A DNA stretch of 64,000 nucleotides from a bacterium. Its GTDB lineage: Bacteria; Hydrothermota; UBA3073; JACQXS01; JAQTXJ01. Positions 5,960 to 57,423 of this stretch are shown piece by piece. Every line of letters begins with the position of its first letter. Position 1 is the stretch's first letter. Both the position numbers and the translations under genes were made by a program. Where the stretch lies: contig JAQUPX010000004.1 in assembly GCA_028716385.1 (NCBI GenBank), positions 49,936-113,935 of the forward strand, given 5' to 3'. A model generated the notes under the pieces. The model searched no databases. It saw only the letters and a list, made by a program, of their open reading frames with translations, and was not told where the DNA came from.

Positions 5960-6000
5960 AACTAATAGGATATGATTTGGTTATAAATTAAACTTGAATA

Positions 6001-7350: not shown

Positions 7351-7352
7351 AA

Positions 7353-12391: not shown

Positions 12392-12601
12392 CTTATCCCC
12401 CTTATTTTTTAGATATTCATTCTTTAGATACAAATAATATAAAAATAGTTCCAAGTTTTTTGTTTCTTGTGTTATATAGGTTGAAAGTTTGGATGTTAAA
12501 AAATAGAAAACATAAAAAAAATATCACAAAATAACATAGCCACTTGACAAATTATCAAAGAAGTATCATAAATATAATATATTATTTTAAGAATGACGAA
12601 T

Positions 12602-12664: not shown

Positions 12665-15055
12665 ATGCGTAAAATAATGTCTATCGTGTTTTTATTAGTG
12701 ATTTGTCCTATGTTAGTAAATGCAGGAAAGACTACGATACTTACTCCTGCAAGCGCGTATAAACCTATGAATTTTGGTGGCAATAAGGGAACTATTGATA
12801 CTTTGCATCCTCAATGGGATGCTTTTAAGATAGGTTGGAAATACACTTATAGAGTCGAATATGAGGCAACACAACTTACACCTGTTGCGGCATGTTCTGT
12901 TTTTGCGATATGTCACGGGGTTTCATCCAGATATACGAATTCATCAAAACAATGCAGCGTTTTTATTTGGGATAATTTGGTAGAAGCACCGGGAGAAGTG
13001 CTTTACAAGGCAAGAGTTACTGCTACCTCCACTACACCATCACAGGTTAGTTATAACTGGTATACTATAAATCCCCCTATATATGTTACAGGTCCTTTTT
13101 GGGTAGGAAATTATGAAATGGATACGCTTTATCCTACATCATCCGTAGATACCATTCTTACCATTCCGGGAACGAGTGCTTATATAGGCGCATCAGGATG
13201 GACGGCAGACAATGGTGATTATTACCAGGCAGCGGCTGTAAACTATAATGTATCAGCAGGAGATATTAGCGTGTCTCCAACTTCTTTAGAGTTCCAGATA
13301 GACAGTAGTTCAGCGAAGGGGATGCAATTATTGGCTCCTACCGTTTGTAAAGCAAATATAGAAGACGAGGCTTATTGGAAAGATATAGTGCCCGGTGAAG
13401 TAATAATTGGATATAAGAATGCGATTGATGTAAAGAAAGCAACTTTAAGTCAGCTCGGAATTGCGGAAAAAGGCATAACCGTAAAAAATAAAAATATGGG
13501 AGATAATTTTATACTTGTTAAGGTAAGTGGTGATATAGCAGAAGAAAAAGCTTTTGTAAAGCGTATGTTAGCGAGACCGAATGTGAGTAGTGCAGAACCG
13601 AACGGTATAACCAGACCTTTCAAGAATCCGAACGATCCGTATTTTGCTTCATATCAATGGGACAAAAGGAGTTTAAAGGCTCCTGAAGCTTGGGAATATG
13701 GATGGGGCAGTGATGCTATTTCGTTAGCAATAGTTGATAATGGGTCGCAATACTCTCTTGCCGATTTAAGTCCCAGGTATGGTACTGTTAAAGGAAGAGA
13801 TACATGGGCAGATGATGATGACCCTAAGCCGGAAACTCCAACAACGGAATATCACGGAACACATTGTTCTGGAATTGCAATGGCTACAGTTAATAACGGC
13901 ATAGGTATTGCCGGATATTCAAATTCAAGACTTTATTCAGTGAGGGTGATGGAAGCGGGCGGTGGGGATCTTGCAGCACTTGCGGATGGAATACAATGGT
14001 GTATAGATAATGGTGTAAAGATATTATCTATGAGTATGGGAGGAACTTCTTCTTATGCTTTTATTGCAACTAAATGTATAAATGCATGGAATGCGGGATG
14101 TCTTCTTTTTGCTGCATCCGGGAATTATGGAGTAGAACCCGTTGCATATCCTGCAGGATATAATGGGGTTATAGCAGTAGGCAATATAGCTTCCAATGAT
14201 GTCCGGGATTCTCAGAGTAATTATGGTTCGGCGTTGAAGTTTGTTGCGCCCGGTATGGGAATAGCGTCTTATTTTCCGGATGGGAATCTTAACCAGTTAG
14301 CAGGGACATCTATGGCGTGTCCGCAGGTTGCGGGTGGTGCAGCGCTTGTGTGGTCGGCGAATCCATCATTAACAAATGCGGAAGTAAGGGATATACTAAT
14401 TAATACGGCGACAGATCTTGGAACTACGGGTTGGGATAAGTATTATGGGTACGGTAAGCCCGATCTTCAGAAAGCAGTTGAAGCGGCAATGACAGGGATA
14501 AATAATCCTGCGGATACAGGAATGTTAACCGTTTATAATTCGTCCTCTGCAACCGGGGCTTTATGTGTTACGGATATTACACATAAGCAAAGCTGGATTA
14601 AGTCTGTGGACCCGAAAGTTTTTAATGTAGCGATTGGTAGTTCCAATGGAGTTACGGTTATAGTTCAAGCTGCACTTCCACTGGGAACGTATTACGATAC
14701 TTTGTTGATAAGATCAACGGATACGGATAAAGACCCGTTAGCCGTACCGGTTACTCTTACCGTTGCTAGTACTGCAATTGAAGAAATGAAAACTTCTGAA
14801 TTTAATTTCAGAGTTTTAAACAATCCGACTACGAAGTTTGTAGGTATCAGTTTTAATATTCCTGATGCCAAGAATGTTACATTAAAAATGTATGATGCGG
14901 GCGGAAGAAATGTAAAAACGCTTATTGATAATTCTAATATAAGTGGCAGTTATAATTCAAAAATTAGTATTGGGACTTTGAGTTCGGGAATATATTTTGC
15001 TGTGCTGCAAGTTGGAGATAGACGGATAAGCAAAAAGATTACGTTGGTGAGGTAA
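12665..15055 (+). CDS. Subtilisin-like serine protease (peptidase S8) with T9SS-type C-terminal sorting domain
   Basis: Catalytic triad contexts AIVDNG (Asp), HGTHCSGIA (His), GTSMACPQVAG (Ser). Signal peptide present. C-terminal GIYFAVLQVGDRRISKKITLVR CTD. GGAGGGG SD. Confidence 0.85.
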   Translation: MRKIMSIVFLLVICPMLVNAGKTTILTPASAYKPMNFGGNKGTIDTLHPQWDAFKIGWKYTYRVEYEATQLTPVAACSVFAICHGVSSRYTNSSKQCSVFIWDNLVEAPGEVLYKARVTATSTTPSQVSYNWYTINPPIYVTGPFWVGNYEMDTLYPTSSVDTILTIPGTSAYIGASGWTADNGDYYQAAAVNYNVSAGDISVSPTSLEFQIDSSSAKGMQLLAPTVCKANIEDEAYWKDIVPGEVIIGYKNAIDVKKATLSQLGIAEKGITVKNKNMGDNFILVKVSGDIAEEKAFVKRMLARPNVSSAEPNGITRPFKNPNDPYFASYQWDKRSLKAPEAWEYGWGSDAISLAIVDNGSQYSLADLSPRYGTVKGRDTWADDDDPKPETPTTEYHGTHCSGIAMATVNNGIGIAGYSNSRLYSVRVMEAGGGDLAALADGIQWCIDNGVKILSMSMGGTSSYAFIATKCINAWNAGCLLFAASGNYGVEPVAYPAGYNGVIAVGNIASNDVRDSQSNYGSALKFVAPGMGIASYFPDGNLNQLAGTSMACPQVAGGAALVWSANPSLTNAEVRDILINTATDLGTTGWDKYYGYGKPDLQKAVEAAMTGINNPADTGMLTVYNSSSATGALCVTDITHKQSWIKSVDPKVFNVAIGSSNGVTVIVQAALPLGTYYDTLLIRSTDTDKDPLAVPVTLTVASTAIEEMKTSEFNFRVLNNPTTKFVGISFNIPDAKNVTLKMYDAGGRNVKTLIDNSNISGSYNSKISIGTLSSGIYFAVLQVGDRRISKKITLVR

Positions 15056-17373: not shown

Positions 17374-18381
17374 ATGAGCTATCCATCGAAGAAAAATTCC
17401 TACGAGTCTTATATAACCGAACTGCAAAAAGATATAAAACCTGCCTACCTGATTATAGGGGATGATGGTTTTTCCAAAACAAAATTTGTAGAATACATAG
17501 AAAAACAACTTATAAAACCCGATTTTCGTTCCATAGACAGGCTTCTTACTTATGGAGATGAAATTAATGAAAATATGCTTTCGTGGTTATGGCTTATGCC
17601 TTTTGCCTCTAAAAAACGGTTACTTATAGTCAGAGGAGCTGAAGTAATGCTTGAAAAAGAATATGCCGGGATTACATCTAAGATTCAATCTTATCTTGAT
17701 AAACCATCATTTTCCGGGGTTCTGGTAATAGTTGCAGAGCCGCTTCCCAGAAATAAATTAAAATACAAACCTAAAAAAGAATTATCATTTAACAATATTG
17801 AAACCTGTGAATTTAAGAAATTGGACAAAGGCGATATAGGGGATACGATTAGAAGAAAATTAAGAAACGAAAAGGTTACAATGGAAAAAGAAGGAATTGA
17901 ACTTCTAAAAGAAATTTTTGGAAATGATTTGAATATGTTGAGAACGGAAATAGACAAAATTATTAGCTTTGTTGCGCCTTCAAAAGACATAAAACTTAGT
18001 GATGTAGAAGCTATGCAATCTTACAGTCTGGAAGGCTCCATATACAATTTAACTCGCTCAATAGGGAAAAGAGAACGAACAAAAGCGATAGAGACATTGG
18101 AGTTATTGCTCAATTTAAGAGAAAAATCAGGTGGGGAAAAGGCAACCGGAGTTTTATGGGAAATTAATAAGTATTTTGAGAATCTGTTAAAGTTAAAAAC
18201 TCATCCGGAAGAGTGTAAGGGGGGGAAGTTCTACTATATAAGAGGAGATGCTAGTTTATGGGAAGAAAGAAGTATAGTTAATGCATTTGCAAAGATATTT
18301 GATGCTGAATTTGCAATTAAAACGGGTAAAGGAGAACCTGACCTTGTAGTAACAAAATTAATATATAATCTATGCTCATAA
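17374..18381 (+). CDS. holA: DNA polymerase III delta subunit
   Basis: 335 aa. PAYLIIGDDGF..., MPFASKKRLLIVRGAE and a C-terminal helical domain fit the HolA layout. Assignment from pattern only. Confidence 0.6.
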   Translation: MSYPSKKNSYESYITELQKDIKPAYLIIGDDGFSKTKFVEYIEKQLIKPDFRSIDRLLTYGDEINENMLSWLWLMPFASKKRLLIVRGAEVMLEKEYAGITSKIQSYLDKPSFSGVLVIVAEPLPRNKLKYKPKKELSFNNIETCEFKKLDKGDIGDTIRRKLRNEKVTMEKEGIELLKEIFGNDLNMLRTEIDKIISFVAPSKDIKLSDVEAMQSYSLEGSIYNLTRSIGKRERTKAIETLELLLNLREKSGGEKATGVLWEINKYFENLLKLKTHPEECKGGKFYYIRGDASLWEERSIVNAFAKIFDAEFAIKTGKGEPDLVVTKLIYNLCS

Positions 18382-20450
18382 TTTATTTTGTTGTTCAGTT
18401 GATGGGGTATTTTAAGCAGACTGACTGGAGTGGGGATACTAGTCAAATTCAATGGGTAGACACTTCGTCATACTTTGATTTTAATTTGATAGATGGCAGA
18501 ACTACCAAAGGGAATTTAAAATTGTATGCACCCTCGGGAATATGGAAAACTTCAAAACAACTCTCTATCTACCAAGTAAATGCTATTCAAACAGGGAATA
18601 ATGGAATAATATATTTAGGTTGTGGTGTGGACAGTGCAAGGGTGATTAAATTAGGAAACTATGGAGATAGTATTATATTCAACAAAGTGCTTCAATATGG
18701 TGGTAATCCCGGTCAAGTATTATCAATACTGAAACTGTCAAATGAAAATCTTGTTGTTGGAACTGAGAGGGGAGATATATTTTTAGTACAAGATACTGTT
18801 GCTACGTGGAAATTCCAACCGGGTTATAAAGTTCAAACATTATGTAATGATGGCAGCTGGGTATATGCTGCGATAGAAGGTGGAAAAATACACTGGTCTG
18901 TAACTAATGGTATATCATGGTCTTCGGGGGATACAAGCAGAATCCCGGAGACGAATAGGGCATATAGTATATTTAAACCTTCAAATAGTTTTCTTTATGC
19001 ATGTACACAATCTTTAACCGGACAGGGACAGATATACAAATCAGTAAATAATGGTAGAAACTGGACTATAGTAAACACTTTTACCGGGGTTGAAGCTGTT
19101 TATTCAATGGCAGAAGATTATGAACATAACTTATATGTTAGCACAGGGTATAGCGGTAAGATTTTTACTTCTTCTGATTTTGGGACTTCATGGCAGGAAA
19201 TCCCATCGCCATGGCAGACAGCTGATTTTTATTCTATTGTATGTAACCCTATGGGAGTAGTTTATACTGCGGGGCAATGTCTGGGAATGTCAAAAGCCGT
19301 TAAAGGAATGGTGTTTAGCACTAAAAATCAAGGTGTAAGCTGGGATACGGTTTTTAAATATCCGACAGGTGCTTTGCCTACAAGAATACTTGCGATGACT
19401 CAATCAAATGAAGGGTTTATGGTTGTCGGTGGGGATACGAACGTTTGTTTTATTTCGGGATATGTAGATTCTGGATGGCTGGTCTCTTCTGTTTATGATG
19501 CTTTTGACAGTTTGCCCAGAATAAACAATAGTCTTAAATTTATAAATATTCATTATAATTGTAATCTTGGAGATAGTATAAAAGTTAAGGTTCGGGCATC
19601 TAAATATCCTGATTCTCTTGGCAATTGGGGGGAGAATGTTCCTAATGATTCCAATCCTACAAAATATGGTGGTGTTAAAAATGGGGATAGATATATTCAA
19701 TACAAAGTAAACTTAAAAACTAACAATGCTTATAAAAGCCCAAACTTGTCAGAAATTTATATAAAGTATAGTATAGACATAGAAGAGCCTATTATAGATT
19801 CTGTTTTTCTAAGCGACTCTTTTGTAAAATGGAATAGTTATGTGCTTATTTATTTTAATAAATATATTGACGGGTTCTCAGTTAATTCCTCAAATATTGA
19901 CAGTATCTTCAGGTTAAATAATAATCATTCGTGGAGAAGTGATACCGGAAGAGGTATTATAAAAGCCCCGGGCGAATGGATAACTCCTTCATTATTAAAA
20001 ATTCCTTTATCTACATTAAGAATTGGTCGCGGGGAAGGTTATTATCCGACACTTGTTCTTGGAGATACAGTATATCCGAATTCTTCCATAATTAAAGATA
20101 CTCTTGGAAATCCTTGTTTGCAACCCACAATTATTAGTATTAGCGTAAAACCGGCAATAAGCGAGAACAATGAAAAATTATATCCGGAATTATCCATAAC
20201 TCCGAATCCTTTTAACCGGTTATCAAAAATAAGTTATGGCGTGCCTTTTAAAAGTAACGTTTCCATAAAAATATATGATTGTGTTGGCAGATTGTCAGAA
20301 GTACTGGTTAATGAAGAAAAGGAAAAAGGAATATATTTTATGAAATTAGAAAATAATAATTTGACTAGAGGAATATATTTTATTAAGTTTATAATGAATG
20401 ATAAAATTATGGGTACAAAGAAAGTGATTTTAGTCTCTATAAAAAAATGA
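18372..20450 (+). CDS. BNR/Asp-box repeat beta-propeller protein with T9SS-type C-terminal sorting domain
   Basis: Asp-box-like motifs (SVTNGISWS, SVNNGRNWT, SSDFGTSWQ, STKNQGVSWD). C-terminal NPFNRLSKISY...IYD..G...GIYFIKFIMNDKIMGTKKVILV. Confidence 0.65.
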   Translation: MLIIYFVVQLMGYFKQTDWSGDTSQIQWVDTSSYFDFNLIDGRTTKGNLKLYAPSGIWKTSKQLSIYQVNAIQTGNNGIIYLGCGVDSARVIKLGNYGDSIIFNKVLQYGGNPGQVLSILKLSNENLVVGTERGDIFLVQDTVATWKFQPGYKVQTLCNDGSWVYAAIEGGKIHWSVTNGISWSSGDTSRIPETNRAYSIFKPSNSFLYACTQSLTGQGQIYKSVNNGRNWTIVNTFTGVEAVYSMAEDYEHNLYVSTGYSGKIFTSSDFGTSWQEIPSPWQTADFYSIVCNPMGVVYTAGQCLGMSKAVKGMVFSTKNQGVSWDTVFKYPTGALPTRILAMTQSNEGFMVVGGDTNVCFISGYVDSGWLVSSVYDAFDSLPRINNSLKFINIHYNCNLGDSIKVKVRASKYPDSLGNWGENVPNDSNPTKYGGVKNGDRYIQYKVNLKTNNAYKSPNLSEIYIKYSIDIEEPIIDSVFLSDSFVKWNSYVLIYFNKYIDGFSVNSSNIDSIFRLNNNHSWRSDTGRGIIKAPGEWITPSLLKIPLSTLRIGRGEGYYPTLVLGDTVYPNSSIIKDTLGNPCLQPTIISISVKPAISENNEKLYPELSITPNPFNRLSKISYGVPFKSNVSIKIYDCVGRLSEVLVNEEKEKGIYFMKLENNNLTRGIYFIKFIMNDKIMGTKKVILVSIKK

Positions 20451-36572: not shown

Positions 36573-37364
36573 ATGAAAGATTTGAAAGTTGAACAGAAGT
36601 TTCATGACTCGAAAGTTCACTTATTCGTAGAAGATGAGGGCGAGAGTTTTTTTAAGATTCCACCGAAAAAAGCCATAAAAAACGATGTATGGCTTAAACA
36701 TTTTCCCGAAATATTGGGCGATTTGACCGGAAAATCCGTTTTGGATTGTGGTTGCGGGACCGGGGCTATCAGCGCGGCTTTAAGTCAGAACGGCGCTAAA
36801 GTGACGGCGTTTGATTTGTCCAATGGAATGCTGAAAGTTGCCCAGAAAAGGGCATCAAGCTGGAAACTTAATATTCCGGTTGTTGAATCTGCTTTTGAAA
36901 ACCTGCCTTTTAAGGATAATAGTTTTGATTTTGTAGTCGGATCTATGATTCTTCATCATACCGAACTTGAAAAAACAGTTAGCGAAATAAAAAGAGTACT
37001 AAAAAAAAACGGAAGAATATTGTTTTTAGAGACACAGTTAAGAAATGTGTTTTTACGGACGTTGGTAGAATCTCCGATTTATAAGATTAGATTTTTACGA
37101 CACGGTTCGCCTTGTGAGAAGCCATTAACGTTGAAGTCCTTAAAATATATAAAATCGGCATTTACGGGTGTCAGGTTTCACTACTTTTCGTTTATTTTTT
37201 TACAACTTATAGGGAGTATTATTGCAAGGCCTTTGAGGAAAACAATACTGGAAAAAATCGTTCTTTCGTTTTTTGTTGTCCCGGATGGGTTTGTTGGTAA
37301 ATATTTGCCGGCATTGAGGAAATATAGTTACTGGGTTATGGTGGAAGGGGAGAAGAGGAAATGA
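36573..37364 (+). CDS. Class I SAM-dependent methyltransferase
   Basis: VLDCGCGTGAISAAL motif I, DLSNGML, FDFVVGSMILHH. Confidence 0.75.
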   Translation: MKDLKVEQKFHDSKVHLFVEDEGESFFKIPPKKAIKNDVWLKHFPEILGDLTGKSVLDCGCGTGAISAALSQNGAKVTAFDLSNGMLKVAQKRASSWKLNIPVVESAFENLPFKDNSFDFVVGSMILHHTELEKTVSEIKRVLKKNGRILFLETQLRNVFLRTLVESPIYKIRFLRHGSPCEKPLTLKSLKYIKSAFTGVRFHYFSFIFLQLIGSIIARPLRKTILEKIVLSFFVVPDGFVGKYLPALRKYSYWVMVEGEKRK

Positions 37365-37510
37365 GGATTTTGGAATGTGGATTGCGCCTGCCTGCCGGTA
37401 GGCAGGGATTTTGGATTGGGGATTTGGCACGAAGTGACACCCCGCCCTGGCGGCGGTTAGAATTTGGATTTGAAATTAAAAGATTAAAACCACAGAGCAC
37501 AAAACAAAAA

Positions 37511-37567: not shown

Positions 37568-37834
37568 ACCGCAGAGTTCGCAGAGAAAAGAATGATAGAC
37601 CTTCGTAATGGGGTATTCAGGAACTAGTTGTTACGGAAATAAAAATAGAAAATAGCGAAAAACCAAAGAAGCAGAAAAATAGCACAAATTGAATTTGTGC
37701 CTACAAACTACAAACCTTTATAAAAAAATTACTTACAGCGGGATATTACTACAAAGAATATTAGGAACATTTTTAGCAAATAGGTATAACAAAAATTAGT
37801 TGACAAATTAGTGCATTATGGTTTAAGTAGGATA

Positions 37835-39412
37835 ATGCAAAAGGTAACTTGTAATTTTTGTACCCTTGGCTGTGAAACCTCTTTGAATGAAAGCGATATA
37901 GGCGTCGTAGACATTAAATATTCAAAATCCGGCGCTAATGAGGGGAGACTTTGCAGTCGCGGGAATGCACTGCCTATTTATCTCTCCGCAAACCAGCGTT
38001 TAACTTCTCCTTTGAGAAACGGACAGGAGATTAACTGGAAAGATGCATTTAATGAAATTATATCGGCATTAAAGAATTATAAAGCTTCGGAAATCGCAAT
38101 CACTTATGATACGAATCTGACTATTGAAGAGTATTCACTGGTATCCGAGTTTGCAAAGATAAAAGGGATAACTAAACTGGCATCAAGTTACATTGAACCC
38201 GAACATTATTTTAATTATGTTTTGCCTGATGTTAAGATTGCGAATTTTGACGATGTAAAAGACAGCAAGACTTTCTTTATTATAGGGGATTTGTTCAGCC
38301 AGTTTCCGGTAATAGCGAAAGCCATACTTGACGTAAGATACTGCAGCAAACAAAACAGGATTTTCGTGCTGGATTCGTTTGTTACTTCTACGGCAGGTTT
38401 TGCCGATACTTTTATTAAAACGGATGTAGGTAAAGAGGCTCTTGTTCTGCTTGATATGGCTAATCTTGCTAAAGGCAAAACAGATGAATTAAAAGGCGGA
38501 ATAGAACATAGCGTTTTAAGCGGGGTGTTGAATTCGTTAAACGAAAGTGAAAAAGCGGTAGTAATAGCGAGCAATTCATTTGGAAAAACTACAGACCCGA
38601 TGGTATTTTCCGGGATGGCGCAGTATTTTGCTTCATCTTTGAAAGGCGATAAGAAATTTTTATGGCTTGGCGAATCGGCAAGCGTTCCCGGGAATGTTGA
38701 TTTTAGCGATATATTATCGGGCATTAAAAAGAAAGAAATAAAATGTTTATTAAATTTCGGAGCGATGTCTCCTGTGTATTATCCCCAGATATGGGATTAT
38801 TTAGACGAACTTGAGTTTATGGCTTCCACGGTTACGATGATGCCGGAACTTGCAAAAAATAGGCTTTCATATTTGTTTATGCCGACGACTTTGCTGACGG
38901 AAACCGGCGGTACTATAAAAACATTTTTCGATGGAGAAAAGAAAGTAATAAACGGAGTGAAACCCTTAAGCGGAACGAAATGCGTGGGAGAAATAGTGTA
39001 TGCGTTAGCAGAAAATAAGATTAGCGTAGTAAGCCCGGGGAAACCCGTCATTAAGGAATTGAATTTGGAAGAAGTCTTAAGCAGGGCGGCTAATATGGTT
39101 ATTCCGCAAGGGGATTACATACTTATGGGAGAAAAAACCGCATATCAGTTCAAAGGATTATTCTCCGAACCAATAGTTATAATGAATAGTCATAATGCAA
39201 AGAAATTAAAAGTAAAAGAAGGTTCAGTCGTTGAGATAAAATCTTCGGTAGGCGAAAGCGAATTCAAGGTTAATATTTCCGATAAAGTTCCTGAAAGAGT
39301 TTTACTTGTATCCACGGAATTACCGGAAGCAAGGTCATTATTTGAATTAAATATAAGTTCAGGTATTTGCGAGTTTCCACCGATTGAGGTGAGCGTATGC
39401 AAAAGAGATTAG
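37835..39412 (+). CDS. Short molybdopterin-oxidoreductase (MopB) family protein, formate-dehydrogenase/FwdBD-like
   Basis: N-terminal 4Fe-4S motif CNFCTLGCE...C. Molybdopterin-binding core (TFFIIGDLFSQFPV). C-terminal molydop-binding barrel (VIMNSHNAKKLKVKEGSVVEIKS..GESEFKV). ATG at 37835 preferred over the GTG at 37811. Confidence 0.65.
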   Translation: MQKVTCNFCTLGCETSLNESDIGVVDIKYSKSGANEGRLCSRGNALPIYLSANQRLTSPLRNGQEINWKDAFNEIISALKNYKASEIAITYDTNLTIEEYSLVSEFAKIKGITKLASSYIEPEHYFNYVLPDVKIANFDDVKDSKTFFIIGDLFSQFPVIAKAILDVRYCSKQNRIFVLDSFVTSTAGFADTFIKTDVGKEALVLLDMANLAKGKTDELKGGIEHSVLSGVLNSLNESEKAVVIASNSFGKTTDPMVFSGMAQYFASSLKGDKKFLWLGESASVPGNVDFSDILSGIKKKEIKCLLNFGAMSPVYYPQIWDYLDELEFMASTVTMMPELAKNRLSYLFMPTTLLTETGGTIKTFFDGEKKVINGVKPLSGTKCVGEIVYALAENKISVVSPGKPVIKELNLEEVLSRAANMVIPQGDYILMGEKTAYQFKGLFSEPIVIMNSHNAKKLKVKEGSVVEIKSSVGESEFKVNISDKVPERVLLVSTELPEARSLFELNISSGICEFPPIEVSVCKRD

Positions 39413-39864
39413 TCGTCGATTTAGATTACTGTATCGGTTGTAAAAGCTGTAGTTCAGCCTGTAAACTGACATTCAAGGGTGAAAACAGGATTGTCGTATC
39501 GGGCGTAGAAACCGTAGCTTATTTGCCGCTTGCTTGCAGACACTGCGAAGACGCATTATGTTTGAGAGCGTGTCCTAAAGAAGCGATAAGCAAGGACAAA
39601 GAAACCGGCATAGTAAGTCGTTCAAGTTTTAAGTGCGTGGGTTGTACGAGCTGCATATACGCATGTCCTTTCGGAGTTTTGGATTCTATGCTTTTGAGAC
39701 ATATACCTGATAAATGTAATTTATGTAAAGGCGATGAGGATGGACCGAATTGCGTATCGAGTTGTCCTACGGGCGCATTGAAATTCTTAACGGATGAAGA
39801 AATAACGAAGGTTCAGGTTGGAAAGCAATTTGTGTCACGGTTGGCATTCTGGAGGCGTAAATGA
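39397..39864 (+). CDS. 4Fe-4S ferredoxin-type electron-transfer subunit (HycB/DmsB-like, four cluster motifs)
   Basis: CIGCKSCSSAC, CRHCEDALCLRACP, CVGCTSCIYACP, CNLCKGDEDGPNCVSSCP. 16-nt overlap with the upstream gene. Confidence 0.85.
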   Translation: MQKRLVVDLDYCIGCKSCSSACKLTFKGENRIVVSGVETVAYLPLACRHCEDALCLRACPKEAISKDKETGIVSRSSFKCVGCTSCIYACPFGVLDSMLLRHIPDKCNLCKGDEDGPNCVSSCPTGALKFLTDEEITKVQVGKQFVSRLAFWRRK

Positions 39865-40268
39865 ATAAATGGGCATTAAAGAAATCGATATGGGTATTTC
39901 ATTTTGCGGCGGCATCCTGTAATAATTGTGATATAGAGATACTTGATACGTTAACTCCAAGATTTGACTTAGAGAGATTCGGTATAAAATTAGTCGGTTC
40001 CATCAAGCATGCAGACGTGATGCTTGTAACGGGGTCATTAACTTTAAAAACTAAAGACAGGCTTATGAGAATTTACGAACAGATGCCGCAGCCGGGTTTA
40101 GTTGTAGCGATTGGCGGATGCGCGTGTTCCGGTGGTATGTTTGCGGATGCATATTCCGTAGTAGGACCATTTGACAAATGGGTGCCTGTTTCTGCGTATA
40201 TTCCCGGTTGTCCCCCAAAGCCCGAAGCTATGATAGCAGGGATAGTAAAGTTGCTGAATACGCTTTAA
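39861..40268 (+). CDS. NuoB / group-4 [NiFe]-hydrogenase small-subunit-like protein (HycG/MbhJ/EchC type)
   Basis: All four N2-type cluster ligand contexts are present: SCNNCDIE, GGCACSGG, IPGCPPKPE. 135 aa. ATGA overlap with the upstream gene. Confidence 0.8.
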   Translation: MNKWALKKSIWVFHFAAASCNNCDIEILDTLTPRFDLERFGIKLVGSIKHADVMLVTGSLTLKTKDRLMRIYEQMPQPGLVVAIGGCACSGGMFADAYSVVGPFDKWVPVSAYIPGCPPKPEAMIAGIVKLLNTL

Positions 40269-40525
40269 TAAAGGGCGAGAAGAAAATTCAGACAAGAACC
40301 ACAAAAGAGAAACCACCTACCAAACAGACTGGCAGGCAGGCAAGATTACACAAGATTTCCACAAGAAAAAACAGAAAAATACAAAAAATTAGCCACGGAT
40401 AAAAGACACGGATTTTCACGGATAAAAAGGGATTAAGACAGAAACCCAAATAACAAAAGGAGCAAAAAATGGAAAATAGGACAGGATTAACAGAAAAGAG
40501 AGGAAAGAGTAAACAAAGAAAAGGA
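40269..40525 (+). repeat. T-poor purine/cytosine low-complexity tract with CACGGAT-type words
   Basis: AGCCACGGATAAAAGACACGGATTTTCACGGATAAAAAG, GGCAGGCAGGCAAG, long A/G runs. Related tracts at 30062-30235, 36340-36560 and 37470-37600. Confidence 0.7.
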
Positions 40526-42208: not shown

Positions 42209-43735
42209 TTACTTCATCAAAATTAACTTTTTTGTCGTCTTGGAAGTGCCGGTGGAAAGGGTTAGGAAATAGACTCCTGTTTTTAGTTCTTTTGCGTTTA
42301 GTGTTGTGCTATAAGTGCCTGCCAATTTCTGTTCATTCACAAGCGTTTTTATATAATTACCTGATATGTCGTATATTATGAGTGAGACTTTTGATTTAAC
42401 AGATAAGGAATACGTAATGAGTGTGGATTGAGTAAACGGGTCAGGTTGGTTTTGAAGCGTTATGGATTGTGCTTTTTTATGTATTTCCTCTATACCTGCT
42501 CCATCCCCTACTTTTATAAGATAAACATCGTAACCGCCTGCGCCGTAAGAGGAAGTTTCCCCGACGATGATATACCCGCCATCAGTGGTTTGCTGTGTAC
42601 AATGTCCCCAATCGTCTTTAGTCCCACCATAGACTTTTGTCCACATAGTATCTCCCAACAGGTCTGTTTTCAGAACCCATAGGTCTTTTTGTGTCCCGGA
42701 CAAGCTAATTCCTCCGGTCAGGATATACCCGCTATCCGAGGTTTGATTGACAGACTCAAGTAAATCATACTCGGTCCCACCATAAGTCTTTGTCCATAAT
42801 GTATTTCCGATTGAATTTGTTTTGACAAGGTAGGCATCAGCGTAACCTGCACCGAAAGAGTAAGTTCCGCCGGCTATGATATATCCGCCATCATTAGTTT
42901 GCCGGACGGAAAATCCATAATCATCTAGAGTTGTTCCGCCATAAGTTTTAGTCCACGATGTGTCACCTGAAGCGTTTAATTTTAGAAACAAAACATTTGC
43001 GAAACCTATCCCGTAAGCAAGAGCCGTTTCTCCGGTAATAATATAGCCACCGTCAGAGGTTTGACGGACAGAATAGCCACAATCAATGCCGGTCATACCG
43101 TAAGTTTTTGTCCATAGGACGTTTCCCGACGAGTTTGTTTTTATAATATAAACAGTGCCATTAACACCATAAGAATAAGTTCCTCCGCTAATTATATAAC
43201 CGCCATCTTGAGTTTGTTGAACGGATTCGCCCCAATCAGTACTGGTTCCACCGTAAGTTTTTGTCCATAGAGTATCCCCCGAAGAATTGGTTTTTATAAG
43301 GTAGACATCGCTATTTCCTGCACCGTAAGAATCAGTATATCCGGTAATTATGTAGCCATTATCAGTGGTTTGCTGTACCGAATTTCCACAATCATCCTTA
43401 ATCCCGCCGTAAGCTCTTGTCCATAGCGTGTCGCCAATCGGGCTGGTCTTTATCAGGTAAACATCTTTATATCCTGCGCCATAAGAATAAGTTTCTCCTG
43501 TAATTATATATCCGCTATCAGAGGTTTGCTGGACGCAATATCCTTTATCGTTTTTGGTCCCACCGTAAGTTTTTGTCCATGTTGTTCCGGGGGCACAAAT
43601 AAGCGAATTTATTTTTACAAAATACAAAACTATTCCTATTAATATTAATGTAACCGTTGAACGATTATTGAAAATACGAATCCATAGTTGACGTGGTATG
43701 AAATTTGACGAGCGGAATATAAATTGTTTTAACAT
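42209..43735 (-). CDS. Secreted repeat protein (about eight ~48-aa TKTYGG...DGGYII repeats) with T9SS-type C-terminal sorting domain
   Basis: Repeating unit LWTKTYGGT..D.G.SV.QT.DGGYII.G.T.SYGAG..D.YLIKT...GDT. C-terminal DPFTQSTLITY...IYD..G...GVYFLTLSTGTSKTTKKLILMK. Confidence 0.7.
   Translation of the reverse strand: MLKQFIFRSSNFIPRQLWIRIFNNRSTVTLILIGIVLYFVKINSLICAPGTTWTKTYGGTKNDKGYCVQQTSDSGYIITGETYSYGAGYKDVYLIKTSPIGDTLWTRAYGGIKDDCGNSVQQTTDNGYIITGYTDSYGAGNSDVYLIKTNSSGDTLWTKTYGGTSTDWGESVQQTQDGGYIISGGTYSYGVNGTVYIIKTNSSGNVLWTKTYGMTGIDCGYSVRQTSDGGYIITGETALAYGIGFANVLFLKLNASGDTSWTKTYGGTTLDDYGFSVRQTNDGGYIIAGGTYSFGAGYADAYLVKTNSIGNTLWTKTYGGTEYDLLESVNQTSDSGYILTGGISLSGTQKDLWVLKTDLLGDTMWTKVYGGTKDDWGHCTQQTTDGGYIIVGETSSYGAGGYDVYLIKVGDGAGIEEIHKKAQSITLQNQPDPFTQSTLITYSLSVKSKVSLIIYDISGNYIKTLVNEQKLAGTYSTTLNAKELKTGVYFLTLSTGTSKTTKKLILMK
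42490..43585 (-). repeat. Tandem coding repeats (~144 nt unit, about 8 copies) within the TKTYGG-repeat gene
   Basis: Recurrent ACCGCCATAAGTTTTTGTCCA(T/C)A... blocks on the plus strand. Confidence 0.8.
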
Positions 43736-43919: not shown

Positions 43920-45302
43920 TTATCTGTTATGTTTTTTGAGGAATTCGGTGATTTCGGGGAGACCACCCTGGTAGATTAGATACCCATCATAAGGTTCTCT
44001 GGTTGTGATTTCGCCTGCTATCGGGGTGAGCATCATTTTTTTTACTTTTTCCAGATTTTTTGTTTGTCCCAAAACCCACCCGAGTTTGACATAAGCTACT
44101 TCGGGAAGCATATTTGCGGCAGGAACAATTCCCATATCCATTAAATCCCTTCCGGTATCATAAACATACATCTGAACATATCCCCAGAGCGTTTGAACGG
44201 TCATATATACGGCAATACCTTTTTTGCAGGCTCTTTTTATTGGTTCATAAAGCGGTTTGTTGACGTGTCCAAGCCCGGTTCCGGCAATGATTATTCCTTT
44301 GTAATCGTGGTCGATAAGCGATTCAATGATGTCGGGTTTCATATTTGGATAATAATATACGATAGAGACTTTTTCTTCGAAAGCAGTGTTGATGGTTACT
44401 TTCTTGTCTTTCCGCCTGTGATTGTAATCGGTTTTTAACGGAGTGATTTTGTCGTTATCAACAAGCGCAAGAGGAATGTCACCGATAGTCCTGAAAGTTG
44501 ACCTGTAGGAAGAGTGCATTTTTCTGACACGTGTTCCGCGGTGGAGTAAGCCGTATTCATCGCTTGTAGGGCCAAACATACAAACCATTACTTCGGCGAT
44601 GTCGGATTCGGCGGCGGTTTTTGTCGCGTGCATCAAATTGAGCGCAGCATCGGAAGAAGGCCTGTCGGAGGAGCGCTGAGAACCAACCATTACTATGGGG
44701 ACGGGAGAATTTTGTACCATAAAAGAAAGAATAGCGGCGGTATGGTGCATAGTATCGGTTCCGTGACCGATAACAATACCGTCAATGCCTTTTTTGATTT
44801 CTTTTCCGATGGCTTCGGCAGTACCTCTCCATTGGTCGGGACCCATATTTTCGCTAAACACGCCGTAAAGTTTTTCCGTATTCAGGTTGCAAATATCAGC
44901 GAGTTCGGGAACGGAGCCGTAAAGTTCGCCGGGAGAGAAAGCAGGTATAACGGCACCTGTTCTGTAATCGAGTCTGCTTGCGATAGTTCCGCCCGTGCCG
45001 AGAAGTTTTACATTAGGTTTTTTAGGGTCATAAGGAAATTCTTTTTCGGGAATTTTGTAAATGGCTTCTTTGTAGGACATCTCTTTAATTCGTTTTATGG
45101 TATCAACGGCAAGACCGACATTATAACCGGTACGAAGTTTTACAACGATATGTTTGTCATCTGCGGTTTCGGACCTCGGCAGGATAATTCCGATAAATTC
45201 TCCACGGGTGGAATCTATTACGACATCGCTCCAGACACGAACTTTATGTTCGATAAGGGTGTCCTTGGCTTTTCCCCGATAACCTTTATAATCGTCTGCC
45301 AT
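43920..45302 (-). CDS. gatD: Glutamyl-tRNA(Gln) amidotransferase subunit D (archaeal-type, asparaginase-like)
   Basis: N-terminal GatD domain (GIILPRSETADDKHIVVKLRTGYNVGL). Asparaginase motifs LGTGGTIASRLDYRTGAV and HGTDTMHHTAA. Confidence 0.85.
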   Translation of the reverse strand: MADDYKGYRGKAKDTLIEHKVRVWSDVVIDSTRGEFIGIILPRSETADDKHIVVKLRTGYNVGLAVDTIKRIKEMSYKEAIYKIPEKEFPYDPKKPNVKLLGTGGTIASRLDYRTGAVIPAFSPGELYGSVPELADICNLNTEKLYGVFSENMGPDQWRGTAEAIGKEIKKGIDGIVIGHGTDTMHHTAAILSFMVQNSPVPIVMVGSQRSSDRPSSDAALNLMHATKTAAESDIAEVMVCMFGPTSDEYGLLHRGTRVRKMHSSYRSTFRTIGDIPLALVDNDKITPLKTDYNHRRKDKKVTINTAFEEKVSIVYYYPNMKPDIIESLIDHDYKGIIIAGTGLGHVNKPLYEPIKRACKKGIAVYMTVQTLWGYVQMYVYDTGRDLMDMGIVPAANMLPEVAYVKLGWVLGQTKNLEKVKKMMLTPIAGEITTREPYDGYLIYQGGLPEITEFLKKHNR

Positions 45303-45304
45303 AG

Positions 45305-47248
45305 TTATTTTTGTTTAATAAGCACGGGCAATAATTTTTTCAGTTCCGTATTTATTATTTTCCCGTCAATTGCGCCTACGAGTTTATGCATTAATTTTCC
45401 CATTAAAAATCTTTCCGTTCGTAGTTTAATGTTTTCTTTTTTCTTTGGTTTGTATAAAGTTTTTTTATGTTTTGCATAAGAATCTTTTATTTCCGATTGA
45501 AGTTGTTTGATGTTTACCGATTTGATTTTCAGGCTTTTAAAAGCTTTTTCAAAAGTAGTGCTGGGCATTTTTTCTAAAAGGACGGGGATTAATTCTTTTG
45601 CGAATTTTCTATTTTTATAAGCTTCAAACATTTTATATATTTCGGGTTGTGGTATATTATTTATATTTATGCCTTCCCTTTTCAGGTGTTTGAATTTCTG
45701 GATGATTGTGGCAGCGGTGAGGACGGGGTCTATTTTTAGATTTTTTACGATTTTATCAAAAAGGGTTGAGTATTTCGAAGTTATGAGAGGAATTATAGTA
45801 TCTTGAGGAAGATTCATCTGTCTGTATCGTTTTTCTCTATCCCATGGGAATTCGGGTATACCGGACATTATTTTTTTGATTCTTTGCGGGGAGACGGATA
45901 TCGGCGGGAGGTCAGTATCGGGATACATTCTATTAGGTCCCGGGAGTATTCTTTCGAAGCCGGTGGTGTTGTTTGCGAGAGCCTGTCGGGTTTCACTGGG
46001 AATACCTTCCATCGCTTCTTTTATACGGATTTCTATTTCTTTTATGGCCGTTTCGGAATCCTGTTTATCGCCCCAGACGATTATTATGGCGTCGGTTGAT
46101 TGGGCGGATAGTTTGGCGGATATGGTTTTCCACTCTTTCTGGGATAAGTTTTTGTTTTTAGTTTCGGAAGATATGATATTAGGAAGGGTATTGAGACAAG
46201 CGATAACTCTTACTCTGTCGGAGATTTCGTTCTCAAAAGTCTGTTCGGGTTGAGTGGGGTAGGAGAGGATATTTTTGAATTTAGGCAAGAGCAATGCATT
46301 TACGAGAAGGTCTTTTTTGATCACTTTTTGTATGGGGTCGTAGGTTGTATTTTTTAATAAATTCGAGATGTTTAGAGTTTTTATTTTATAAGATTTTTCG
46401 GATAGTTTTCTTTTTTTGAGTTCGGCTTTAATTTCGAGAAGGGCTTTCTGACGCATAGCTTCATTGTGGACGAGTTCGGGGATAAGAGGAATTCTGGATA
46501 CGCCTTTAATTTCTATACGGGTGCCGCCGGTGATGCTGACGTTTACGTCTTGTCTTGTGGCGCCGATACCCGTGCGGACTTTCCCGGTGACGCGTGTCAG
46601 GCGTCTGATAATTTGAGCTACTTCAGCGGCTTCGCGGGGATTTTTCATATCCGGGTAGGTAACGGTTTCAATAAGAGGCATACCGAGACGGTCTGTTTTG
46701 TATATCCTTAAATGCCCTTTATCGGATATTTCCCTGCAGGCATCTTCTTCAAGACCGAGCTGGCGGATTTGAATTTTTCTGTTTTTGTAGGGTATAGTGC
46801 CTTCGATCCCGACGATAGTAGTTCGTTGGAAGCCTGTCGGGATGCTTCCGTCGAGGTATTGTTTTCTTGCGATATGAAGTTCGCTAACTAGATTGCATTT
46901 AAGGAGGATTGCAATTTCGAGGGCAATATCAAGGGCTTCGTCATTGAGTGGGAACGGGGGAGTATCATCGAATTCGTAGGTGCAAGCAGTTTCGTGGTTT
47001 AATCGATAGAGAATATTCTTTTTTGTTTTGAATTCCATAAGGGCGGTTCCGTCGTAAACACCGAGTTCCGAGAGAGTAGGGCGCATATGCCTGAGAATTT
47101 CGGCATCGTATTCGTTGGTGTAGCGACCTGCGGGGCAGTGGCAGAAGAGTTTTTCTTTAGTAAAGAGTTGCTGGTGGATTTCGAGACCGCATTTGAAGCC
47201 GAGTTTTTCGTATTCCTTGTCAGTTAGTTCGCCAAATTTTTTTACCAT
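45305..47248 (-). CDS. gatE: Glutamyl-tRNA(Gln) amidotransferase subunit E (archaeal-type)
   Basis: KCGLEIHQQL...LFCHCP, RHMRPTLSELG, RKQYLDGSIPTGFQRT, LGLEEDACRE, RQDVNVSI: GatE-type (not GatB-type) motif spacing plus an inserted domain. 2-nt gap to gatD. Confidence 0.85.
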   Translation of the reverse strand: MVKKFGELTDKEYEKLGFKCGLEIHQQLFTKEKLFCHCPAGRYTNEYDAEILRHMRPTLSELGVYDGTALMEFKTKKNILYRLNHETACTYEFDDTPPFPLNDEALDIALEIAILLKCNLVSELHIARKQYLDGSIPTGFQRTTIVGIEGTIPYKNRKIQIRQLGLEEDACREISDKGHLRIYKTDRLGMPLIETVTYPDMKNPREAAEVAQIIRRLTRVTGKVRTGIGATRQDVNVSITGGTRIEIKGVSRIPLIPELVHNEAMRQKALLEIKAELKKRKLSEKSYKIKTLNISNLLKNTTYDPIQKVIKKDLLVNALLLPKFKNILSYPTQPEQTFENEISDRVRVIACLNTLPNIISSETKNKNLSQKEWKTISAKLSAQSTDAIIIVWGDKQDSETAIKEIEIRIKEAMEGIPSETRQALANNTTGFERILPGPNRMYPDTDLPPISVSPQRIKKIMSGIPEFPWDREKRYRQMNLPQDTIIPLITSKYSTLFDKIVKNLKIDPVLTAATIIQKFKHLKREGININNIPQPEIYKMFEAYKNRKFAKELIPVLLEKMPSTTFEKAFKSLKIKSVNIKQLQSEIKDSYAKHKKTLYKPKKKENIKLRTERFLMGKLMHKLVGAIDGKIINTELKKLLPVLIKQK

Positions 47249-55196: not shown

Positions 55197-55326
55197 CCTG
55201 AAGTTAAAATCCCGTAATTAATATAATAGATTTCTGTGAAATGAAAAACATACGGATAGATGGAGTACCATCACTTCATCTAAAATATTTTTTTGCAGCC
55301 TTTTGTCTGAAAACTCAGAAGGTAAA

Positions 55327-57423
55327 ATGAAAAAACTAAAAATAATAATATTTGCTGCCTTTATTGCAGCAACAGTAGACGCTCAACATTTGGGTTGGGA
55401 AAATTATACGGAAGGAAGGTATATTACTGCCGTTGTTAACAATGGAAATAAAATATGGGTTGGAACTTCCGGTGGATTAGTCTCTATAGACACCGCTACA
55501 AGCGCTATGGAATTCTATAATCACAGTAATTCGGGTTTGCCTTTTAATTATGTTTTGTCTCTTGCAGTGGAAGGAACAACAATATGGGTTGGAACTGCTT
55601 ATAGGGGATTAGCAAAGTATGATGGCACTAACTGGACTGTATATAACACGAGTAATTCGGAATTACCGGATAACTTTATTTATGCCCTTGCAGTAGAAGG
55701 AACGACAATATGGGTTGCAACTAGGGGATTAGCAAGGTATGATGGCACTAACTGGACGGTATATAATATGAGTAATTCAGAGTTGCCCGATGATTATGTT
55801 AATACTATTGTAATAGAAGGGACAACGAAGTGGGTCGGGACAATGAATGGTGGTTTAGCAAAGTACGATGGTATAAACTGGACTGTTTACAACACAAGTA
55901 ATTCAGGGTTGCCTGATAATGATGTTAAGGCTATTGCAATAGAAGGGAGTAATATCTGGATCGGTACTGATGGTGGACTTGCGAAGTTTGACGGCACAAA
56001 TTGGACTGTTTATAACAAGAGTAATTCGGGTTTGCCTGCTAATAATGTTAATGTTGTTGCAATAGAAGGAACAACGATATGGGTAGGAACGTGGGATAGC
56101 GGATTGACAAAATTTGACGGCACAAATTGGACTGTTTATAACAAGAGTAATTCGGGTTTGCCCGATAATATTATTAAATCCCTTGCAATAGAAGGAACGA
56201 CAAAGTGGGTCGGAACTAATGGCGGATTGGCAAAGTTTGATGGGATAAATTGGACTACTTGCAATACAAGTAATTCAGGGTTGCCGTATAACTGGATTCT
56301 TTCTCTTGCAATAGAAGGAACGACAAAGTGGATAGGAATGTGGAGTGGGGGATTAGCGAAATTTGATAGTACTAATTGGACTCCATATAATACAAGTAAT
56401 TCAGGATTACCTAATAATTTTGTATGTGCCCTTGCGTTAGAAGGAACAACAATATGGGCCGGAACTGGTGGCGGATTGGCAAAGTTTGATGGCACAAATT
56501 GGACTGTGTGTAATACAAGTAATTCGGGGGTGCCTGCCGATAGTATTCTGGCTATTGCAGTAGAAGACACAATAGTGTGGGTCGGAACTACTGGCGGTTT
56601 AGCAAAGTACGATGGTGTAAACTGGACTGTTTATAACACAAGTAGTTCAGGCTTGCCGGATAATCGAGTCACTGCTCTTGAAATAGAAGGAACGACAAAG
56701 TGGGTCGGAACTGGTGGCGGATTGGCAAAGTTTGATGGAATAAACTGGACTGTTTATAATTCGAATAATTCAGGCTTGCCTTATGATGGGATTTTGTCTC
56801 TTGCAGTAGAAGGAACAACTAAATGGGTCGGCACTCAGTATAGTGGATTAGCAAAGTTTGATGGAACTAACTGGACTGTCTATAACGAGAGTGATTCAGG
56901 ATTGCCCGGTAACACTGTTTATGCCATTAAAGTAGAAGGAGCAACAATTTTGGTCGGGACTAATGGCGGGTTGGCAAAGTTTGATGGCACAAACTGGACT
57001 ACTTATAATATGGATAATTCAGGGTTGCCTGCTAACGCTGTCTATGCCGTTACAACAGAAGGGACAACGATATGGGTTGGAACTGGTGGTGGTGGATTAG
57101 CAAGGTATACACAGTTAGGAATACAAGAACCATTCATTCCTAATTCTGCATTCTGCAATCCGAAATTGAATGTTTCCCAAAATCCATTCCCCCGCTCAAT
57201 ACTTATCTCTTATTGTATACCTCCGAATTCCGAATATACGAATACACTATTAACAATTTACGATTTATCAGGGTGTTGCATAAAAACTCTTATCAACGAA
57301 CCCAAACCGGCTGGCTCTCATACCGTAACTTTCAATGCAAAAGATTTATTTCCCGGTATTTATTTCGTAAAACTTTCAACAGGTAATTATAAAATAACAA
57401 AAAAACTGGTGTTAATGAGGTAA
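55327..57423 (+). CDS. Two-component-regulator-propeller (Reg_prop) repeat protein, ~13-14 blades, with T9SS-type C-terminal sorting domain
   Basis: Signal peptide MKKLKIIIFAAFIAATVDA. Unit GGLAKFDGTNWTVYNTSNSGLPDN.V.ALAIEGTTIWVGT repeated about 14 times. C-terminal GIYFVKLSTGNYKITKKLVLMR. Confidence 0.8.
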   Translation: MKKLKIIIFAAFIAATVDAQHLGWENYTEGRYITAVVNNGNKIWVGTSGGLVSIDTATSAMEFYNHSNSGLPFNYVLSLAVEGTTIWVGTAYRGLAKYDGTNWTVYNTSNSELPDNFIYALAVEGTTIWVATRGLARYDGTNWTVYNMSNSELPDDYVNTIVIEGTTKWVGTMNGGLAKYDGINWTVYNTSNSGLPDNDVKAIAIEGSNIWIGTDGGLAKFDGTNWTVYNKSNSGLPANNVNVVAIEGTTIWVGTWDSGLTKFDGTNWTVYNKSNSGLPDNIIKSLAIEGTTKWVGTNGGLAKFDGINWTTCNTSNSGLPYNWILSLAIEGTTKWIGMWSGGLAKFDSTNWTPYNTSNSGLPNNFVCALALEGTTIWAGTGGGLAKFDGTNWTVCNTSNSGVPADSILAIAVEDTIVWVGTTGGLAKYDGVNWTVYNTSSSGLPDNRVTALEIEGTTKWVGTGGGLAKFDGINWTVYNSNNSGLPYDGILSLAVEGTTKWVGTQYSGLAKFDGTNWTVYNESDSGLPGNTVYAIKVEGATILVGTNGGLAKFDGTNWTTYNMDNSGLPANAVYAVTTEGTTIWVGTGGGGLARYTQLGIQEPFIPNSAFCNPKLNVSQNPFPRSILISYCIPPNSEYTNTLLTIYDLSGCCIKTLINEPKPAGSHTVTFNAKDLFPGIYFVKLSTGNYKITKKLVLMR
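55414..57112 (+). repeat. Tandem coding repeats (~138-141 nt unit, about 14 copies) within the Reg_prop gene
   Basis: DNA-level recurrence of GGATTAGCAAAGT(A/T)TGATGG(C/T)AC(A/T)AA(C/T)TGGACTGT(A/T)TATAA...AGTAATTC(A/G)GG. Confidence 0.85.

Follow-up and report, generated by a model that had tools for sequence, protein, structure and literature searches.

Within a 64,000-nucleotide stretch of DNA from a Hydrothermota bacterium (GenBank assembly GCA_028716385.1, contig JAQUPX010000004.1, positions 49,936 to 113,935 of the forward strand; the whole stretch is called the window below), three translationally coupled genes form an intact, selected electron-transfer core derived from a soluble Group 4b-type [NiFe] hydrogenase cluster. 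The trio encodes a formate dehydrogenase (Fdh)-like subunit of the MopB fold, a HycB-type polyferredoxin and a hydrogenase small subunit, for which six [4Fe-4S] clusters are predicted from the cysteine motifs: one, four and one, respectively. The break in the operon lies immediately behind the small-subunit gene and dates to the common ancestor of one bacterial clade. The genes for NuoC, NuoD (HycE-type) and HycF may lie at a second locus, with the full soluble enzyme assembled from both, an explanation to which we assign a probability of roughly 45 %. A first-pass annotation, made from the letters of the DNA and their translations, had left the choice between partner subunits encoded elsewhere and a module working without a large subunit; we judged this the right framing. 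The features of the locus are:

37835..39412, plus strand: mopB, Cys-less Fdh-like subunit of the MopB fold, 525 amino acids (open reading frame calls, Pfam, NCBIfam, AlphaFold2 model)
39397..39864, plus strand: hycB, HycB-type polyferredoxin, 155 amino acids, four [4Fe-4S] motifs (Pfam, NCBIfam, relatives in the Protein Data Bank)
39861..40268, plus strand: nuoB, predicted MbhJ/HycG-type small subunit of group 4 [NiFe] hydrogenases, 135 amino acids (PF01058, matches in the Protein Data Bank)
40269..40525, no strand: operon end, non-coding spacer of 257 bp, A-rich on the plus strand (open reading frame map, alignment of relatives)

The three proteins and their parent cluster

The gene anatomy of the first pass held throughout: three genes at 37835-40268, all on the plus strand, overlaps of 16 nt (mopB/hycB) and 4 nt (hycB/nuoB, as ATGA), the motifs, and a convergent downstream gene, which encodes glutamine synthetase and lies beyond the 257-bp spacer. 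The 16-nt overlap is also present in relatives, and Shine-Dalgarno-like GAGG/GGAGG sequences stand ahead of the hycB and nuoB starts. The start of mopB was set at ATG 37835; a start at the in-frame GTG at 37811 would lengthen the protein by 8 residues, and the homologues all begin at the ATG.

The mopB product presents the four-domain MopB fold and the N-terminal [4Fe-4S] motif of FdhF-type proteins. Cys6, Cys9, Cys13 and Cys40 make up the expected CxxCxxxC...C motif of a single cluster, and the C-terminal Molydop_binding domain passes its Pfam cut-off, as does Molybdop_Fe4S4. Molybdopterin reached 22.9 bits against a cut-off of 24, all three domains being weak matches, and the NCBIfam model for Fdh-alpha 82.8 bits against 666. 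Foldseek placed the AlphaFold2 model (pLDDT 78, pTM 0.78) closest to Escherichia coli FdhH (1fdi, 7z0t_A; TMq 0.76), ahead of Nap and complex I NuoG, while the family profile found its best solved matches in formate dehydrogenases, namely the F420-dependent enzymes 9t1s_L and 7bkb_D and FdhF of the hydrogen-dependent CO2 reductase (HDCR, 7qv7_S). In the profile alignment to 9t1s_L and 7bkb_D, Tyr119-Ile120-Glu121-Pro122 sit on U/C-H-G-P, and the segment AR-x-(C/U)-H-G-P-S of formate dehydrogenases becomes A-S-S-Y119-I120-E121-P122-E, in the family ASSY[IL]EPE. Tyr occupies the position of the Mo/W ligand and Ile/Leu that of the catalytic His. A canonical FdhF or formate dehydrogenase was ruled out by the lack of a Sec/Cys-His pair, and the FdhF label of the first pass has to be dropped: where a Mo-ligating Cys/Sec was to be looked for, the alignment to formate dehydrogenases presents an invariant Tyr, followed by Ile/Leu120. 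By fold the protein is a MopB member; it is not a formate dehydrogenase. According to an earlier survey, roughly half of the Fdh-like subunits in Group 4b are likewise without the Cys/Sec ligand (PMC13582414).

Tyr119, Glu121 and Pro122 are invariant across the MopB family, and ASSY[IL]EPE is its most conserved motif, in every cluster architecture; such conservation is more suggestive of a functional site than of a mere scaffold. NuoG retains the MopB fold without a cofactor, thus the fold alone is no proof of pterin cofactor binding. An exhaustive hidden Markov model search of 1.84 billion cluster representatives yielded 143 clusters (at 50 % identity) with E<1e-30, only ~20-25 of them with an ASSY[IL]EPE-type motif; canonical ARLCH formate dehydrogenases appeared only at the foot of this list. 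A word-indexed homologue search had returned just 12 MopB hits, an undercount against the 143 clusters.

The second protein has the four 4Fe-4S motifs described in the first pass, with 16 Cys in CxxCxxCxxxC-type arrangement and a Fer4_11 match of 63 bits. Its best solved relatives are the polyferredoxin of a tungsten aldehyde oxidoreductase (WOR, 9mqx_E), HDCR HycB3 (7qv7_A) and E. coli HycB (7z0s_B); its alignments to 9mqx_E (88.6 bits) and to HycB3 run over the whole length.

For the 135-residue third protein, PF01058 (Oxidored_q6) scored 111.7 bits against a cut-off of 27. The full ligand set SCNNCDIE / GGCACSGG / PGCPP is there as first read, with the cluster cysteines Cys20, Cys23, Cys87 (plus Cys89) and Cys117; Cys20/23/87/117 line up with the ligands of the proximal [4Fe-4S] cluster in MbhJ and HycG. 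Good scores of the NCBIfam NuoB subfamily models (153 bits) would be in keeping with an ordinary paralogue, a spare NuoB of a complete nuo operon elsewhere with unrelated neighbours. However, TIGR01957 reaches 142.2 bits, just below its cut-off of 142.7, the motif is the hydrogenase-type SCNNC and not the tandem CC of complex I, structural matches rank MbhJ (6cfw_J, 151.8 bits) and HycG (7z0s_G, 124 bits) above complex I NDUFS7/NuoB (~116 bits), the gene is translationally coupled to the other two, and the closest relatives belong to NiFe hydrogenase clusters, where they too come after HycB and MopB genes of this kind. Scans of the window's open reading frames and tblastn searches revealed no other gene of a nuoA-N operon in the window. 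The complex I paralogue, which would have overturned the first-pass reading, was rejected on motif, scores and gene context and retains next to no credibility; the protein is best taken as a hydrogenase-type small subunit of the MbhJ/HycG kind.

Relatives were collected by looking up gene contexts and by scanning reference genomes and metagenomes, and were classified by tblastn. By sequence and gene order, the trio genes appear as the core of Group 4b-type [NiFe] hydrogenase clusters, which occur in soluble and membrane-bound forms:

Membrane-bound full form (L025): AsrA(Fer4_22)-AsrB(FAD/NAD, 2Fe-2S)-MopB-HycB-HycD(NuoH-like)-NuoB-NuoC-NuoD-antiporter/Mrp subunits-HycF; L008 and L009 share the arrangement as far as NuoD and two antiporter-like subunits, and the fragments L015, L020, L023 and L024, truncated by contig ends, agree with it
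Soluble eight-gene form (L001, L011, L013): AsrA-AsrB-MopB-HycB-NuoB-NuoC-NuoD-HycF, without membrane genes; in L012 and L014 the cluster runs into a contig or locus end
Soluble six-gene form (L003/L004): MopB-HycB-NuoB-NuoC-NuoD-HycF, without adjacent AsrAB
MopB-less membrane form (L018, 1-4651): AsrA-AsrB-HycB-HycD-NuoB-NuoC-NuoD

In the complete relatives the same three genes are thus followed by NuoC, a NuoD with NiFe motifs and HycF. The window proteins are 33-49 % (MopB), 54-69 % (HycB) and 62-72 % (NuoB) identical to those of members such as L001, L003, L008, L009, L011, L013 and L025. Since NuoD of L001, L003 and L008 carries both NiFe-binding motifs (RICGICSNSH ... DPCYCCTER), these clusters are true [NiFe] hydrogenases; homologous large subunits are present in L009, L011, L013 and L025. 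L018, whose cluster has no MopB gene, shows that the family uses the Fdh-like subunit as an optional accessory. In the hydrothermal-vent relative L001, genes for a group 3b-like hydrogenase (small subunit of 324 amino acids and large subunit, HoxH, of 486 amino acids; 4731-8046) lie directly upstream of the AsrA-AsrB-MopB cluster, with a HEPN/nucleotidyltransferase toxin-antitoxin-like pair in between.

The parent cluster type has already been described in silico. A Saganbacteria cluster (RX5A) with an unclassifiable molybdopterin oxidoreductase together with cooF, asrA, asrB and Mrp subunits was called "enigmatic" (PMC6349859, Carnevali et al. 2019), and the RX6A version seems to be without Mrp subunits (PMC6349859). 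A 2026 in silico survey places such clusters in Group 4b and reports that Fdh subunits without Cys/Sec co-occur with SHI-beta/gamma homologues; on the basis of AlphaFold 3 models it proposes a three-way branched FeS network, with the NiFe subunit, SHI-gamma (NADPH) and an Fdh-like protein of unknown substrate as its three ends (PMC13582414). The trio-only form was not found in our literature search.

A clade with the trio alone

Whether the trio recurs as a unit in related genomes had been raised as a check in the first pass, and it does. Five distinct loci of one clade have it without NuoC, NuoD and HycF, and they fall into two deep sublineages: the window locus, with which the identical 4.4-kb Logan contig L005 was counted; L007, the NCBI metagenome-assembled genome (MAG) "bacterium isolate STC_131" (JAQTXJ010000080.1; MopB 96 % identical to the window); L010, a 137-kb JGI contig (MopB 96 %); L002 (MopB 53 %, HycB 78 %, NuoB 86 %); and L006 (NuoB 89 %). 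Between the two sublineages MopB identity is 53-54 % and dS is saturated. In neighbour-joining trees the trio-only loci are monophyletic with bootstrap values of 100 on MopB and 98 on HycB+NuoB, therefore one ancestral truncation followed by long persistence is indicated; in the MopB tree the clade groups with the soluble L001/L003 clusters (bootstrap 100). The downstream neighbour varies, being the convergent glutamine synthetase gene in the window, L007 and L010, a convergent RNase HII gene in L002 and a same-strand FBPase gene in L006.

As the source is metagenomic (landfill), an artefact of assembly or binning was considered, in which the large-subunit genes truly follow downstream and the nuoB end was misjoined to unrelated DNA. 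Two independent assemblies from different projects (NCBI for L007, JGI for L010) nevertheless have the same junction, colinear with the window across the nuoB stop into the glutamine synthetase gene; the L005 contig matches the window exactly until its own end ~150 bp past the nuoB stop, and the operons of the distant L002 and L006 also end after nuoB. The read-through in L007 and L010 and the operon ends in L002 and L006 rule out a misassembly, a notion that deserves almost no belief; the large-subunit gene that a better assembly might have revealed directly downstream did not appear.

A functionless remnant, a hydrogenase operon truncated not long ago and now being lost, is suggested by the absence of the three downstream genes of the ancestral cluster and of the AsrAB genes present in most relatives. 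The coding sequences speak otherwise. Between the window and L007/L010 (Nei-Gojobori, dS 0.21-0.45), dN/dS was 0.06-0.07 for mopB, 0.01-0.02 for hycB and 0.00-0.02 for nuoB; this strong purifying selection (0.00-0.07 overall) means that all three genes are functional. All 21 cluster-ligand cysteines of the trio are intact, as are the gene overlaps and the Shine-Dalgarno sites, and the trio persists in two sublineages with a mutual MopB identity of only 53-54 %. No RNA sequencing run was found to contain the locus. The pseudogene remnant is effectively refuted by the selection data, and decay must be called very improbable.

The missing partners

Searches by tblastn with queries from relatives gave no match to NuoC, NuoD, HycF, HycD, antiporter, AsrA or AsrB in the window, covering 37.8 kb upstream and 23.7 kb downstream of the trio, and no remnant of NuoC or NuoD in the downstream spacer 40269..40525 (E<=10). 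Pfam scans of the ~43 larger open reading frames of the window yielded only housekeeping genes of an anaerobic diderm bacterium and no hyp genes. Of the features that characterise Group 4b, the locus has the Fdh-like subunit without Cys/Sec, the HycB-type ferredoxin and the small subunit. A large subunit with both CxxC NiFe motifs is encoded neither beside the small subunit nor elsewhere in the window, and the window lacks the SHI-beta/gamma (AsrA/AsrB-like) module as well as HyfC-like/antiporter subunits (AsrA/AsrB queries from L001, HycD/antiporter queries from L008). The first-pass statement that neither a [NiFe] large subunit nor membrane subunits accompany the trio was confirmed within the window. 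Missing membrane subunits are, however, no special trait, as the closest complete relatives are soluble six- and eight-gene clusters without them; the unusual feature is the absence of NuoC-NuoD-HycF only.

One break behind nuoB in a six-gene operon like that of L003, MopB-HycB-NuoB / NuoC-NuoD-HycF, would produce the observed arrangement. The second half would persist as a separate operon elsewhere in the genome, and the hydrogenase function would not be lost. Electrons would pass between the Fdh-like end, which would not act on formate, and the NiFe site via HycB, probably HycF, and the small-subunit cluster. We regard this splitting of the operon as the most parsimonious reading because one breakpoint accounts for the whole anatomy without loss of function. 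The joint absence of HycF with NuoC and NuoD is expected, because the three would have moved or stayed together, and the small subunit retaining essentially all conserved residues is explained as well. In the solved structure of E. coli formate hydrogenlyase (FHL; 7Z0S), HycF connects HycB with HycG, and the ndh genes of cyanobacteria and plastids offer a precedent for NuoB- and NuoD-type genes at separate loci. The reading also draws on the strong purifying selection on all three genes, on the intact cluster ligands, on the place of the clade beside the soluble L001/L003 clusters, and on NuoB, which inside the clade is under as much constraint relative to MopB as in complete clusters.

Several observations weigh against a split operon, beginning with the failure to find NuoC, NuoD or HycF in the 64-kb window. 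In a profile search for the NuoD family, none of the best 120 of ~8000 hits (~70-86 % identity) was located on a contig of 339,164 or 137,421 bp, the lengths for the window and L010, a weak point. Five NuoD candidates, picked among these 120 by AT-rich amino-acid bias, were all in ordinary complete clusters, and none belonged to an orphan NuoC-NuoD operon. In ~12 independent complete loci nuoC-nuoD always follow directly after nuoB, so that splitting is unusual for the family. A further point comes from the divergence of NuoB relative to MopB, expressed as (1-idNuoB)/(1-idMopB). This ratio is 0.28-0.30 within the trio clade, in comparison to 0.16-0.45 among complete clusters, and rises to 0.48-0.63 in all 21 pairs of a trio with a complete cluster, above each of the 21 pairs of complete clusters (0.16-0.45). 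Compared with HycB, too, the NuoB of the trio clade stands farther from every complete cluster than predicted. On the stem branch NuoB would accordingly have evolved at a higher rate than expected, with constraint restored inside the clade. This excess hints, though not strongly, at a functional shift and would fit a change of partner or context. A separate history of the nuoB gene may also account for it, as the closest NuoB relative outside the clade (72 % identical to the window protein) belongs to the MopB-less L018 cluster. The excess divergence is spread over variable positions. Among the 88 columns that complete clusters conserve, the trio clade has just five fixed differences (L54M, V68L, L69M, C79G, N99S), mostly conservative ones, and only 6 positions are clade-specific against 120 broader homologues.

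The trio may instead be autonomous, a less probable but serious proposal. NuoC-NuoD-HycF would then have been lost, and the three proteins would act as a self-standing soluble iron-sulfur oxidoreductase or 'wire', with the Tyr-x-Glu-Pro site of the Cys-less MopB as substrate or docking end and the exposed cluster of NuoB as a port for ferredoxin or a partner unlike NuoD. The trio was kept as a unit through deep divergence while its downstream neighbour changed from lineage to lineage, and the stem-branch excess of NuoB with tight constraint thereafter is the pattern expected of a partner change. ASSY[IL]EPE, top-conserved in every architecture, points to a functional site; MopB, optional in the parent family, is plausibly a separate functional branch (cf. 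the AlphaFold 3 model in PMC13582414). Moreover, HycB-type polyferredoxins wire several unrelated enzymes (HDCR, WOR), and the partner genes were found neither in the window nor, on a contig of matching length, among the best 120 of the ~8000 NuoD hits. On the other hand, the NuoB-like protein is almost unchanged at family-conserved positions, HycF, which usually links HycB to the small subunit, is gone too, and the view was limited to 64 kb, the contig itself being at least 339 kb long. A literature search returned no NuoB/HycG-fold protein that works in the absence of a NuoD-type partner, which also counts against autonomy; we know of no precedent for such a function, and throughout the superfamily of complex I and group 4 hydrogenases NuoB/HycG-type subunits are, to our knowledge, considered to depend on NuoD/HycE-type subunits as obligate partners. 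That reduction of a [NiFe] hydrogenase gave birth to a new three-subunit oxidoreductase, with a NuoB/HycG fold freed from its NuoD-type partner as terminal subunit, can only be suggested with reserve and is somewhat doubtful.

A split operon, if true, would be mundane yet relevant for annotation: automated pipelines would name the trio a formate hydrogenlyase fragment. If the large subunit is truly absent, this would be the first small-subunit fold working alone, with a bearing on the modular assembly and disassembly of respiratory complexes in evolution. The trio isolates the least understood part of Group 4b, the Fdh-like branch of unknown substrate, as a minimal three-gene unit that could be expressed and studied apart from the hydrogenase and membrane modules.

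Surroundings and comparison with known systems

Directly upstream of the trio lies a gene for a class I SAM methyltransferase (36573-37364, plus strand; Methyltransf_11/25, UbiE-like), separated from mopB by a 470-bp spacer with a terminator-like hairpin (37387-37406). A methyltransferase gene precedes the trio also in the distant L002, with 69 % identity compared to 53 % for MopB; this neighbourhood may reflect a functional link or simply conserved gene order. About 130 bp upstream of mopB, a 55-bp island (37657-37711) is 94.5 % identical to L010 amid unconserved spacer and contains a perfect 9-bp inverted repeat, GCACAAATT-G-AATTTGTGC (37681-37701). From its conservation and position, the island is a candidate operator or regulatory site of the trio. 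The spacer 3' of nuoB is not conserved among close relatives; a hairpin at 40313-40339, followed by a T-run on the minus strand, would fit the terminator of the convergent glutamine synthetase gene. Repeat families and Rfam elements were not detected in the spacers flanking the trio.

Farther from the trio, adjacent genes on the minus strand (43920-47248), kept in L007 and L010, encode GatD (Asparaginase + GatD_N, 460 amino acids) and a GatE-like protein (GatB_N + GatB_Yqey, 647 amino acids), an archaeal-type Glu-tRNA(Gln) amidotransferase in a host that is otherwise clearly a diderm bacterium, with proteins sorted by the type IX secretion system (T9SS), PBP1, Lnt and sigma-70. The C-terminal T9SS sorting domain (Por_Secre_tail) occurs in five proteins (10820-12454, 12665-15055, 18372-20450, 42209-43735 and 55303-57423). 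The one at 42209-43735 has about eight tandem copies of a ~50-residue repeat, 'WTKTYGG...D.G.SV.QT.DGGYII.G', and its gene is far less conserved than the neighbours (78 % DNA identity to L007, 88-94 % in the flanks). An unusual combination is the 718-residue fusion of a urea-transporter (UT) membrane domain with an M23 peptidase domain at 3803-5959 (minus strand).

Among known systems, the Group 4b clusters (PMC13582414, PMC6349859) have in common with the trio the three proteins and their order, the 16-nt MopB/HycB overlap and the loss of the Mo ligand. They differ in that the window clade is without the NiFe large subunit, NuoC, HycF, AsrA/B and membrane/Mrp subunits at the locus. In the soluble arm of E. 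coli FHL-1 (FdhF-HycB-HycF-HycG-HycE; 7Z0S/7Z0T), a MopB subunit is likewise wired through a polyferredoxin to a small subunit, and its chains recur among the matches of all three proteins: 7z0t_A among the best fold matches of MopB (TMq 0.76), 7z0s_B and 7z0s_G as sequence relatives of the HycB-like and NuoB-like proteins. In contrast to FHL-1, the trio locus is without the Sec/Cys-His pair, HycF, HycE and HycC/D, and the window MopB is ~190 residues shorter than FdhH. MbhJ of Pyrococcus furiosus (6CFW), the best solved relative of the 135-residue protein, aligns to residues 7-133 with a common CxxC / GxC / PGCPP pattern. Its partners are the large subunit MbhL, MbhK, MbhN and membrane subunits, none of which is encoded at the trio locus.

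The polyferredoxins of HDCR and tungsten aldehyde oxidoreductase (7QV7, 9MQX; PMC12318220) are four-cluster wires between catalytic modules and thereby resemble the HycB of the trio. They join FdhF and [FeFe] hydrogenase or WOR modules, whereas the trio HycB is known from its sequence, from which we do not infer filament formation. Complex I combines, in NuoG-NuoI-NuoB, a MopB-fold domain with no or uncertain cofactor and a terminal cluster in a NuoB fold in one chain of electron carriers, as the trio does. NuoB of complex I has the tandem CC and always stands with NuoD, whereas the small subunit of the trio has the hydrogenase-type motif. Strong conservation of the active-site segment is not expected in NuoG; in the trio family, unlike there, this segment of MopB is strongly conserved.

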